Assembly (NCBI GenBank): GCA_963708295.1
Contig: CAVPSJ010000013.1
Location: 160,001-224,000 of the forward strand
Length of the DNA stretch: 64,000 nucleotides
Origin: an uncultured delta proteobacterium
Lineage (GTDB): Bacteria > Desulfobacterota > BSN033 > UBA1163
Direction: 5' to 3'
Of the stretch, positions 29,042 through 33,714 are shown piece by piece (within the stretch, counting starts at the first letter, position 1; the number at the start of each line of letters is the position of its first letter). A program made the position numbers and the translations under genes. The notes below the pieces were generated by a model that saw only the letters and a program-made list of their open reading frames with translations, had not been told where the DNA came from and ran no database searches.

Positions 29042-29869
29042 TTAGGCATGGCGGTCAGCTGGAGCAATCATGATCCGGTTGTCAACAGAACCCGCTCCCT
29101 TCATCTTCTGAACGATCTCTTGCGCCCGTTTTTTGGTCACATCGCCGTCTACTCTTCCGGTCAGAAGGACCTTTCCCGGTTCTTCCACTTGAACCTGAAT
29201 GTAGGTGCCGGCAGGCCCGTAGGTCAGTCCCGCTTCGATAAGAGCCGCCTCTGCCCGGGTCTGAAGGCCCATCATCTCCAATGACTTCATCGCATCGACG
29301 GAACAGGCGTTGATTTCATTGGACCGAGCCATTGTCAAAATGGCATCCACAGCTAATTTCACGGTAACCTTGTCCATATTAAGCACGATGTCATAAAGCT
29401 CGTCGTTCTCCCAATCTGCCTTGAAAGCAAATCGGATGAAACTGCTCCTTTCATGATCACTTGCCTCTATTGCCTTCGAAGCGGCCTCCCGATGCATCCC
29501 CCTCTCAATCAAATTTTGAATACGCTTTTCGGGCGAAGCCGTGACTCGGACATGCAGAGCGCAGTTGAAATCCCTCAAGAGGATTTGGCCCCCTCGGCCC
29601 AAAAAAACGGCATCTCCACGGCCGGCCAATTCGTAAACCACAGAATTGAGACGATCAAGCTCAATGGCGGGTTTATGGGAAAAAAGCCGCTGGAATAGGG
29701 AGGGAGCCTTTTCATCTATATCTTTGACATTTTTCAGAAAACCCATTTCCCGCGCCGTATTCTCAATGGCCTCCGTGTCGTAGAATCTGTACCCCATTTT
29801 TTCCGCAACCTGTTTCGCGACCGCGGTTCCGTTGGCCCCCATTTTTCTTGAGAACGTAATAAAGTGCAT
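29042..29869 (-). CDS. Cytidylate kinase-like family protein with C-terminal BON domain
   Basis: ITFSRKMGANG, FLGRGGQ, LHVRVTA, YDIVLN; C-terminal VLLTGRV...GSVDNRI. Confidence 0.85.
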   Translation of the reverse strand: MHFITFSRKMGANGTAVAKQVAEKMGYRFYDTEAIENTAREMGFLKNVKDIDEKAPSLFQRLFSHKPAIELDRLNSVVYELAGRGDAVFLGRGGQILLRDFNCALHVRVTASPEKRIQNLIERGMHREAASKAIEASDHERSSFIRFAFKADWENDELYDIVLNMDKVTVKLAVDAILTMARSNEINACSVDAMKSLEMMGLQTRAEAALIEAGLTYGPAGTYIQVQVEEPGKVLLTGRVDGDVTKKRAQEIVQKMKGAGSVDNRIMIAPADRHA

Positions 29870-30041
29870 GTTGAGTCTCCTTTGCAGACTTTTTTTGACC
29901 TCACTCAATCTTATTCAGGGGCGAACAGGGCTGTCAAGTCAAAAAAACAGGTCTTCCCAAATTAAAGACAACTATCCCCCGGAGTCAGAGACCGTCAAAC
30001 CTTGTAAGTCTTCACCACAAGCGGCGTTTCCTGAATCACAG

Positions 30042-30206
30042 TTACTTAATTAGAACGCTTATAACAACATAAATGATAAAACCTAATATTATAATCAACA
30101 TGAAGCCTCCGTACATCAAAAACCTACCGAAGGCGTTGAGCCATTTCCTTTTTTTTCTTTTAACCTTAGTGTCACTTGTCTTTTGATCGTTTTTCGTTTC
30201 TTCCAT
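30042..30206 (-). CDS. Small single-TM protein downstream of the tandem riboswitch-like element
   Basis: RBS aggag; MEETKND...KRKKRKW followed by a hydrophobic C-terminus; 54 aa. Confidence 0.65.
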   Translation of the reverse strand: MEETKNDQKTSDTKVKRKKRKWLNAFGRFLMYGGFMLIIILGFIIYVVISVLIK

Positions 30207-30393
30207 TTGTCTCTCCTTTCCGCCATGTTTGCAATTTGTATTTACCGGGTTTTTTCGCCGTTTCGAAACCAGGATCAAACACAGTGACCTGCCAATAATT
30301 CACCTCCCTTCAAATAAGATTGGTGTGTCGGCACGCTTAACTCGCTGCAGTCGCCTCCAAAGAATTCCTGGCATCTCTTTCGTCCTTTCTCTA

Positions 30394-30490
30394 CAACAAA
30401 AAGGCCGCTTTCCGAAGTTTTTGGCTTCGGATAGCGGCCCGACTATCCACATTATTAACCTCCAGAGATATCCAAATATCCCTGGACCCG
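30394..30490 (-). ncRNA. Riboswitch-like element copy 2 with intrinsic terminator (nhaA-I / DUF1646-like)
   Basis: Minus strand GGGUCCAGGGAUAU..AUAUCUCUGGAGGUUAA..GGAUAGUCGGGCCGCUAUCC, then terminator GGCCGCUAUCCGAAG / CUUCGGAAAGCGGCC-UUUUU. Confidence 0.65.
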
Positions 30491-30561
30491 GATTCTTCCA
30501 ATTGGACGAAATTAGGTCATAATCTATTCCGTCAAATCATTCTTCCCTCCCTCGCACCTGT

Positions 30562-30609
30562 CCCCTCACCCCGCCCTCTCCCCTCCGGGGGAGAGGGAAG
30601 GGTGAGGGG
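30562..30609. repeat. CCCTCTCCC-type REP-like palindrome (representative copy)
   Basis: cccctcacc..ccctctccc..gggagaggg..ggtgagggg; related copies near 2096, 5158, 15420, 17890, 22540, 23260, 23345, 24871, 26382, 28496, 31426, 32515, 35957, 38387, 39296, 40325 and 43597. Confidence 0.8.
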
Positions 30610-30611
30610 TT

Positions 30612-30709
30612 CAACAAAAAAAGCCGCTGTCCGAAGTTTTTGGCTTCGGATAGCGGCCCGACTATCCAGATTCTTAACCTCCAGAGATATCAAAATATCC
30701 CTGGACCCA
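30612..30709 (-). ncRNA. Riboswitch-like element copy 1 with intrinsic terminator
   Basis: Near-identical direct repeat of 30394-30490; starts about 30 nt after the predicted transcription start. Confidence 0.65.
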
Positions 30710-30744
30710 GACTAAACTGATTTATTCATTACACTTTTGGAACT

Positions 30745-30773
30745 TTTATAATAAATTATCTTCAAGATGTCAA
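30745..30773 (-). promoter_or_regulatory. Sigma70 promoter upstream of the tandem riboswitch-like element
   Basis: Minus strand TTGACA (30773-30768), 17 nt, TATAAA (30750-30745). Confidence 0.6.
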
Positions 30774-30905
30774 GCTTTTTTCCCCCAGCTTTTTTCCCAA
30801 AAACTTCTTGACACCGGGCACCTTTGCTGGTACATTTTGACTGTCGGTGTCCTCTTTTCGTAGGGAAACCGAGCAAGTCACATCAAATCCGAAAGGGAAA
30901 ATGCT

Positions 30906-31025
30906 ATGTTCGTTCTTCCTCCGAATACTATACTGCTTATCTGCGCCGCAATCGTTTTCGCAATCGTAGGATTCGTCATCTACGGGTTCGTAAAAGGCTT
31001 CGAAAAGTTTTTCCCCAACGAATAA
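30906..31025 (+). CDS. 39-aa single-TM small protein
   Basis: Own translation MFVLPPNTILLICAAIVFAIVGFVIYGFVKGFEKFFPNE; purine-rich RBS; below the ORF-track length cutoff. Confidence 0.5.
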   Translation: MFVLPPNTILLICAAIVFAIVGFVIYGFVKGFEKFFPNE

Positions 31026-31072
31026 GGCTACTCCGTTCCGAAGATCGACCCCTCCTCCCCAAGGAGAAAACC

Positions 31073-31318
31073 CTAAATCAGATCGCCTAAGCGATCGGCG
31101 ACCCATTTGGCGAGGTCCTTGGCTTTGTTTGTGTCCCAGTAAGGACTTGCATTGCCTCCGTTTTCTAATTGCAGCAGATATTTTTTCCCGCCTTTCTGCG
31201 GGTTAAATCCGATGATAGCCACGCCGCCGCCGAAAATCTCGGGGATGTTGAATTTCAATGACTCCCCCTCTTTGAGTTCTTCCATCTTGTCGATGATGTC
31301 ATCCTGACTGAGTTTCAT
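31073..31318 (-). CDS. Hypothetical protein
   Basis: 81 aa, strong RBS ggaggagg, protein-like composition. Confidence 0.7.
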   Translation of the reverse strand: MKLSQDDIIDKMEELKEGESLKFNIPEIFGGGVAIIGFNPQKGGKKYLLQLENGGNASPYWDTNKAKDLAKWVADRLGDLI

Positions 31319-32523: not shown

Positions 32524-33714
32524 CTACCCCTCTCCCCGCCGGGGAGAGGGGAGGGTGAGGGGTAGAGGATATTTTACCAATAAAGTCAGAGCGCCTGCAA
32601 TGAGAGGCAGCACAAACACTGCTTTGATTGCCATCGGCACACCCCAGGTATCTGCGATGACTCCGAGGAGCGTTACCCCGATGCCCCCTGCGCTGATGGT
32701 AAACCCGACCATCATACCGGAGGCCATTCCAAGATGTTGAGGAAGGAGGGCCTGCCCCATGACGGCCGTGAGGGCGAATGAAGAGATCAACACGAGCCCG
32801 GACATTCCCAGAAAGATAAAAGCCGTTAGACCCCTGCTGTAGTAAAAGAGGAGAAGGAGAGGGAAGGACAGGATCAAGGTGGTCAACAGGAATTGTTTAT
32901 GACCCCATCGATCGGCTATCGGAGCCCCCAGGAGTGCGCCGAAAACACCTGCCATGAGGAAGGTGGTGACGAGTTTCCCGGCGTAGAGAGGGTTCCCTTT
33001 AAGATAATTGATGTAATAGAAAGGGATGTAGGCTACCAATCCGGCTGAGATCCACGCTCGAATCGTGGCGATGGTGACGAGAAGGGAGAACGAGGTCAAT
33101 TGATTTCTGGAGAGGGGCGCTTTGATCACCTTCCTGGCCTCTCTGTGAGCAGCCTGGGCAGGGGCGTTGAGAGTGGACATGTTGAAGAACAAGATGGCGG
33201 CCATGAAAATTCCCGGCAGGATCAAGCTCAACATTCCCTTTGGGCCGTAGGAAGTCACGAGGGTAAGTGCCATCATCGGACCGATGGCAATCCCAAAGTT
33301 CCCGCCCACTGCAAAGAATGACATGCCCGTTGCCTTTTTCTCACCCGTAAAATAGTGGGCTGTCTTGAATCCTTCCGGATGAAAACTGGCAATCCCGATA
33401 CCGGTGACAATGACACAAACCAGGAGGAGAGGGTAATCGGAAACGAGACCCGTCAGCGCCAATCCGAGACAGGCGACGAGAGGGGCCAGAGGGAGAAGCC
33501 ATCCGAAAGGATGTCTGTCTGAAAGATGCCCAAATACGGGCTGAATAATCGAAGAGGTGAGATTTGCGGTCAGGAGGATAACCCCTGACATCGTATAGGA
33601 AAGGCCAAAAGCCTCTTTGAAGAATGGGAGAAGAGCAGGCAGAGCCCCTTGATTGATATCCGTGACGAGATGGGCAGCGCTGAGAATGGCCAACGCCTTC
33701 TTGTTGAGTGGCAT
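32524..33714 (-). CDS. MFS transporter (Fsr / fosmidomycin-resistance-like)
   Basis: HLVTD, QPVFGHLSDR, FHPEG, GGNFG; last residues are encoded by a REP palindrome (32515-32562). Confidence 0.9.
   Translation of the reverse strand: MPLNKKALAILSAAHLVTDINQGALPALLPFFKEAFGLSYTMSGVILLTANLTSSIIQPVFGHLSDRHPFGWLLPLAPLVACLGLALTGLVSDYPLLLVCVIVTGIGIASFHPEGFKTAHYFTGEKKATGMSFFAVGGNFGIAIGPMMALTLVTSYGPKGMLSLILPGIFMAAILFFNMSTLNAPAQAAHREARKVIKAPLSRNQLTSFSLLVTIATIRAWISAGLVAYIPFYYINYLKGNPLYAGKLVTTFLMAGVFGALLGAPIADRWGHKQFLLTTLILSFPLLLLFYYSRGLTAFIFLGMSGLVLISSFALTAVMGQALLPQHLGMASGMMVGFTISAGGIGVTLLGVIADTWGVPMAIKAVFVLPLIAGALTLLVKYPLPLTLPSPRRGEG

Follow-up and report, generated by a model that had tools for sequence, protein, structure and literature searches.

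Tandem nhaA-I riboswitch aptamers with competing terminators upstream of a gene for a 54-amino-acid membrane protein in an uncultured deltaproteobacterium

As a gene for a 54-amino-acid membrane protein (TM54) on the minus strand of the window, the whole 64,000-nucleotide stretch of DNA analysed here, was found to be preceded by a direct repeat, the locus raises the question of whether the two repeat copies are complete riboswitches, which ion they would sense and why there should be two of them before so small a gene. The repeat had been given as 97 nt long in an earlier note on this DNA; a repeat search recovered the repeat itself, at a measured length of 95 nt, with copies 94% identical and 219 nt apart from start to start (Table 1). 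The promoter that the same note had placed ahead of the repeat was present as described on direct reading, and its -35 element and 17-nt spacing were kept in all seven related loci whose aligned sequence extends to it. A consensus promoter scan did not list this promoter, because the rule of the scan needs a T at the last -10 position, where an A stands here. Divergent from the promoter is a conserved hydrophobic ORF of 39 amino acids. Of the 30 loci searched by tblastn, 17 contain it (71-92% identity); its only Pfam match was below threshold (FeoB_associated, E 0.0063). A search of sequencing runs with positions 29900-30900 found no RNA, the matches being DNA metagenome contigs with small shares.

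Table 1. Positions of the features of the tandem nhaA-I locus, in window coordinates and in the order of minus-strand transcription
Feature	Position	Strand	Details
Divergent hydrophobic ORF, 39 aa	30906..31025	+	conserved
Sigma-70-type promoter	30745..30773	-	TTGACA 30773-30768, 17-nt spacer, TATAAA 30750-30745; direct reading
Direct repeat, upstream copy	30617..30711	-	95 nt; repeat search
nhaA-I aptamer copy 1	30648..30708	-	RF03057 51.7 bits, E 2.6e-07, model positions 1-55 of 55
Intrinsic terminator 1	30616..30659	-	stem 30659-30621, U7 tract 30622-30616
REP-like GC-rich palindrome	30562..30609		in spacer between switches; 22-nt arms, 91% complementary
Direct repeat, downstream copy	30398..30492	-	95 nt; repeat search
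nhaA-I aptamer copy 2	30429..30489	-	RF03057 52.4 bits, E 1.8e-07, model positions 1-55 of 55
Intrinsic terminator 2	30398..30440	-	stem 30440-30402, U5 tract 30402-30398
Leader, last terminator to start codon	30207..30397	-	~190 nt, unusually long; sequence conserved among relatives (alignment)
TM54 gene, 54 aa	30042..30206	-	ORF 30045-30206, stop 30042-30044; AAGGAG upstream of ATG
Cytidylate-kinase-like + BON-domain protein	29042..29869	-	PF13189 2.2e-38, PF04972 3.8e-09 (Pfam)

When the whole window was searched by cmscan against Rfam 15 (a search space of 64 kb and 4227 families), exactly two matches reached the gathering score, both to nhaA-I (RF03057, gathering score 37 bits), and each of the two copies scored at least 37 bits over the full model. 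A likeness to the nhaA-I class had been suggested in the earlier note and is now carried by a covariance-model match in both copies, but the likeness to DUF1646 (Na+-I) suggested beside it was not borne out, that model giving no match at the gathering threshold in the 64-kb window, and the nhaA-II model likewise gave none. The elements described previously, namely P1 (UCCAGGGAUAU/AUAUCUCUGGA) with GGG before it, the GGUUAA linker and P2 (GGAUAGU-CGGGCC-GCUAUCC), were all present as written, both on direct reading and in the covariance-model alignment; in copy 1 they run as GGGU, P1, an AGGUUAA linker and P2 with its CGGGCC loop, and both helices form when the aptamer alone is folded. Over 56 distinct units, drawn from TM54-related loci and from related genomes, the conserved blocks GGGU, AGGU and CGGGCCGC were invariant. 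P1 and P2 were paired in 98.4% of cells over these units and the terminator stem in 94.6%, compared with 36-52% in slid controls. Four pairs of P1 and P2 showed changes on both sides, and compensatory change was seen both in P1 (pair 10-26, GC in 28 units and AU in 17) and in the terminator (pair 70-78, GC in 33 and AU in 10). As the conserved cores of the two window aptamers were identical, both should bind the same ligand, and the tandem is predicted to be a same-ligand 'pseudo-cooperative' arrangement and not a two-input logic gate.

Each aptamer is followed by a U-tailed hairpin, which folded at -24.0 kcal/mol (z -4.54) for terminator 1 and at -26.8 kcal/mol (z -5.30) for terminator 2, with 0/200 shuffles as stable in either case; in terminator 1, the first two U's of the U7 tract close the stem as G-U pairs. 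A simple terminator scan gave 0 sites in 29500-31200, so the assignment of both terminators rests on the fold, and a U-tailed hairpin stood behind every nhaA-I copy of the related loci. The 5' arm of terminator 1 takes in the 3' arm of P2 (30654-30648). In minimum-energy folds of both copies, the aptamer alone gave P1 and P2, while addition of the next 40 nt gave P1 and a long hairpin, with P2 gone. P2 and the terminator are mutually exclusive, since the 5' arm of the terminator contains the entire 3' arm of P2, and the folds thereby bore out the earlier proposal; the ON-switch logic suggested with it agrees both with these folds and with the layout of a validated relative from Desulfobulbus propionicus.

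That relative is central to the question of the ligand. White 2022 (Sci Rep 12:19145, PMC9646797) describes nhaA-I RNAs as Li+ riboswitches (Li+-I) and rare nhaA-I variants with intrinsic terminators as responding to Na+ instead, these being named Na+-II; the terminator-type variants are given there as occurring in Deltaproteobacteria only, upstream of genes of unknown function. For the Na+-II RNA of D. propionicus, which precedes a 'hypothetical' gene, transcription is reported to be activated by Na+, and a supplement legend of the same paper gives a KD of ~1.4 mM (PMC9646797). Going by the templates in that supplement, the window copies share with this RNA the GGGUCCAG...CUGGAGGUU core, the CGGGCC loop and a terminator 5' arm consisting of the P2 3' arm and CCGAAGC. 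At its base, P1 has a C-G pair in the D. propionicus RNA and in all 56 related units (CG:56), whereas the Rfam consensus has G-C. Also in common are the intrinsic terminator competing with P2, the ON logic, the deltaproteobacterial host and a downstream gene of unknown function, TM54 being without a family. The D. propionicus RNA differs from the window in copy number, the window having two copies and its relatives up to three, and in the nucleotide at position 54, which we mapped from the wild-type and M4 templates of the supplement (PMC9646797) as the one immediately 5' of CGGGCC. At this position the Na+-selective D. propionicus RNA has C, and most Li+-I RNAs have U (PMC9646797); it was U in both window copies and in 54 of the 56 related units, with C in 2. 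Judged by sequence, the window elements carry every testable Na+-II hallmark except C at position 54. Selectivity for Na+ is not to be assumed, because position 54 is U and the C54U mutant (M4) of the D. propionicus RNA responded to Li+, Na+ and NH4+ (PMC9646797). Going by the close relative that has been validated, Na+ is the most likely ligand, with Li+ or a broadened specificity also possible.

The U at position 54, which the window copies share with most Li+-I members in place of the C of the Na+-selective variant (PMC9646797), and the passing of a covariance model built mainly from Li+-I members both speak for a different reading, in which the two aptamers are true Li+-I RNAs, selective for Li+ and physiologically unresponsive to Na+, and TM54 serves in lithium detoxification. 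We regard this as unlikely. In the account of White 2022 (PMC9646797), terminators, hosts among the Deltaproteobacteria and downstream genes without a known function are features of the variant group only and not of the remaining Li+-I/Li+-II RNAs, and typical Li+-I RNAs stand before nhaA or other cation-transporter genes, mostly with presumed control at the ribosome-binding site, in contrast to the terminator and 54-aa membrane protein of the window. An nhaA-type transporter was not found downstream of the switches in the ORF list or by Pfam, so that the usual nhaA-I position upstream of nhaA or another cation-transporter gene is not seen here; the earlier note had likewise remarked that no obvious cation transporter follows, and what does follow is TM54, without a family, and then the CMP-kinase-like/BON protein. 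The C-to-U mutant of the validated RNA moreover kept its response to Na+ (PMC9646797). Finally, U and C were found to alternate at orthologous sites, both before a winged-helix gene (U in L011 and L022, C in L016) and elsewhere (U in L013, C in L027), which argues that position 54 is no strict class switch in this lineage. In this lineage the published rule by which C or U separates Na+-II from Li+-I is out of step with the remaining hallmarks of Na+-II, a discrepancy of interest for the way in which the nhaA-I aptamer encodes ion selectivity.

The reading that we favour, and hold to be probable, is that the leader consists of two complete, independent nhaA-I alkali-cation riboswitches in series, of the terminator-bearing Na+-II subgroup, which control TM54. 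The homologs of the 54-aa protein bear on this directly. A TM54 profile fetched 28 loci (26 from metagenomes and 2 from genomes), and in 22 of them cmscan placed nhaA-I upstream on the strand of the gene, mostly in tandem. Two copies were present in 15 loci, three in 5 (L034, L035, L036, L048 and L049) and one in 2 (L050, and L045, which is cut by the contig end). Six loci had no nhaA-I match, of which L054, L055 and L057 were without upstream DNA and L056, L058 and L060 were distant or unrelated (36-43% identity). In the window, complete aptamers of the same class, each with its own platform, share a single leader, and this recurs in 20 of the 22 riboswitch-bearing loci; with the arrangement conserved, and sometimes triple, the tandem is not peculiar to the window. 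Copy 1 and the last copy each have flanks of their own that were also conserved across loci in the alignment, which places the duplication before these lineages diverged. This conservation is real but shallow, as the organisms with the arrangement are all uncultured close relatives (their neighbouring permease is 96-100% identical) and several of the compared contigs are near-duplicates.

Another reading is that the tandem is a neutral by-product, left by local duplication and by recombination among the repeats, one switch regulating and the other being invisible to selection. Copy number indeed varies between 1, 2 and 3 among close relatives, copies 2 and 3 of L034 are one base apart, and a REP-like element landed in the spacer. 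Identity between copies averaged 93.5% within a locus, 92.5% between orthologous copies and 91.4% between copies 1 and 2 across loci, the first and last of these values hinting at ongoing conversion; concerted evolution between the copies was rejected as a candidate, the step from 92.5% to 93.5% being a weak signal only. We nevertheless consider a neutral tandem improbable, as at least two intact copies, with intact terminators and paired helices, are kept in those 20 of 22 loci, as the conserved copy-specific flanks make the duplication older than the divergence of the lineages, and as other genes are preceded by independent tandem pairs of their own, within this genome and also in G003, G031 and G153, three further genomes from the phylum.

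Among seven aligned related loci, the REP-like palindrome was found at this place in the spacer in L038 only and was missing there in L039, L059, L044, L046, L033 and L053; being absent from six of the seven, it was taken as a secondary insertion. The spacer as a whole folded at -61.5 kcal/mol (z -5.35), with the palindrome as a very stable hairpin that carries no U-tract, and a further spacer hairpin (30505-30533) was not significant on its own (z -1.25). The core of the element reads CCCTCTCCC, a short loop and then GGGAGAGGG, flanked by CCCCTCACCC and GGGTGAGGGG, and its pattern was matched 43 times strictly and 102 times loosely in the 4.9-Mb genome. A second REP-like copy in the window (32528-32563) overlaps the 3' end of a 396-aa transporter-like ORF.

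That the switches act in parallel, with a second promoter in the conserved spacer giving a transcript that sees copy 2 only, is very improbable: a TTGACG hexamer stands in the well-conserved 3' half of the spacer, but on reading the sequence 16-18 nt further downstream no acceptable -10 element was seen, the promoter scan listed no minus-strand site between 30493 and 30616, and scan and alignment together gave one conserved promoter, upstream of both switches, and no promoter-like site in the spacer.

With two switches in series, transcription would start at the TTGACA-17-TATAAA promoter and meet each switch in turn. At low ion concentration the 3' arm of P2 would be lost to the stronger U-tailed hairpin and RNA polymerase would terminate; a bound ion (most likely Na+, possibly Li+ or NH4+) would hold P2 and the core together, block the terminator and give read-through. 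Full-length mRNA would call for read-through at both terminators, and the output would be the product of two read-through probabilities, so that the basal leak would fall and the response would steepen. By arithmetic for independent, identical switches, the ligand range between 10% and 90% output would be 81-fold for one switch, 40-fold for two and 32-fold for three, and a basal leak of 0.2 per terminator would become 0.04 with two switches and 0.008 with three. The sharper response that the earlier note expected of two switches in series is the accepted reading for such arrangements, as presented in Weinberg 2017 and Sherlock 2022.

Both the switch class and its use in tandem have been described already, and the window is a new example. 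Tandem nhaA-I RNAs were noted at the discovery of the motif (Weinberg 2017, PMC5737381), and White 2022 (PMC9646797) reports several, and one triplet before nhaD, each copy having its own terminator. The genes associated with the tandem nhaA-I RNAs published there are nhaD and genes of cation transport or osmotic stress, in contrast to the tiny orphan membrane protein that follows the window tandem. The survey of Sherlock 2022 (PMC9481103) counts seven tandem Li+-I arrangements, 6 doublets and 1 triplet, and names Na+-II as one of the classes for which no tandem had been seen; in the present loci, the terminator-type (Na+-II-like) variant occurs naturally as doublets and triplets. Like the tandem TPP riboswitches of Bacillus anthracis and the Li+-I doublets and triplet treated in that survey (PMC9481103), the window copies are complete switches in series with their own terminators, and the expectation of a sharper response with less leak is the same as that stated there for pseudo-cooperative tandems.

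The gene reached by this leader encodes, by its translation, a protein whose N-terminal half is rich in Lys and Arg and whose single hydrophobic transmembrane helix runs to the C-terminus. Its 25 homologous clusters were 72-96% identical, with 22 invariant columns, and the frame was always open in the related loci, at 53-54 codons. Among 12 distinct coding sequences the variable sites fell 13/13/26 on codon positions 1/2/3, from which TM54 evolves as a protein. It matched no family in Pfam (E up to 0.01) or NCBIfam (E up to 0.1), and a search of the ESM Atlas returned nothing usable, its clusters being all unnamed and scoring at most 0.86. When the TM54 profile was run on the genomes of 31 related species, a clear match was obtained in the window's own genome only, beside one weak match (G007, E 4e-8), upstream of which no riboswitch was present, and one marginal match.

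Between the last terminator and the TM54 start codon, the fold of the leader (30195-30397) was no better than that of shuffles (z +0.44). A 24-aa uORF in this part was rejected as a gene, its ATG being ACG in L044 and its start also being lost in L053. L053 further carries an insertion of ~107 nt inside the leader, between the last terminator and the start of TM54.

Two downstream targets had been proposed, the 54-aa membrane protein and possibly the CMP-kinase-like/BON protein, and only the first proved constant. The CMP-kinase-like/BON gene followed TM54 in 9 related loci and was absent from 8 in which downstream DNA is present, and the promoter scan gave it a promoter-like site of its own (29937-29908); as it is facultative and has its own promoter-like site, TM54 is the constant target. 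Among relatives the gene is variably present, truncated or absent, and in L046 (2765-3112) only its C-terminal BON part was matched after TM54 (query residues 173-288). Since TM54 belongs to no known family, it is the riboswitch that ties the protein to ion stress, and we infer that TM54 may take part in a response to salt or ionic stress whose components are very small envelope proteins.

The genome of the window holds six nhaA-I matches in all, as two tandem pairs and two singles. More widely, nhaA-I was matched in 12 of 31 related genomes and in 14 of 151 sampled genomes of the phylum. In the second tandem pair (contig C12, L001 1-1800, minus strand) the copies are 168 nt apart. This pair precedes a run of mini-ORFs, which encode paralogous hydrophobic peptides of 37 and 63 aa and a hydrophobic peptide of 27 aa, and a 144-aa protein. 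The latter is membrane-anchored and has a weak match to the Ig-like Kre9_KNH family (E 3.2e-4, below the cut-off), and the TM54 helix resembles its N-terminal anchor (40% identity over 40 residues, with E 8e-07 for that single comparison). In L049, three switches and TM54 are followed by homologues of the C12-cluster mini-proteins, which suggests that the gene runs of L049 and C12 are a shared module; family searches with the 83-aa, 85-aa and 63-aa proteins of L049 returned only sub-threshold, chance-level matches.

As nearly all of the terminator-type nhaA-I RNAs of this lineage have U at the specificity position, they could be read as a broader sensor of monovalent cations or ionic strength (Na+, Li+, NH4+), stacked two to three deep and gating an unrecognised salt-stress module of tiny envelope proteins, in which TM54 would act as a modulator of transporters. 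We put this forward tentatively and think it rather doubtful; members of such a module may include TM54, an 'LFSE'-ended mini-protein, the 37-63-aa 'GNFVAW' peptides, the Ig-like lipoprotein and a small winged-helix regulator. On the favoured reading of two Na+-II-like switches in series, the loci supply a conserved gene set, TM54 and the other mini-proteins, for a subgroup whose targets are summarised in the literature only as 'proteins of unknown function', and among these proteins may be new small-protein factors of the response to sodium or osmotic stress. Judging by the titles and abstract openings of papers on nhaA-I and Na+-II riboswitches, mostly from outside subscription journals, none of those papers treats these small genes.

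The two single nhaA-I switches of the genome, on contigs C5 and C8 (L005 and L006), stand before a gene for a 108-aa winged-helix protein of HTH_24/MarR-like type, so that in these cases the riboswitch would, by its position, control a transcription factor. Each of the two has a short terminator, and the two lie in DNA that is nearly identical over more than 1.7 kb, a duplication that suggests a repeated or mobile segment.
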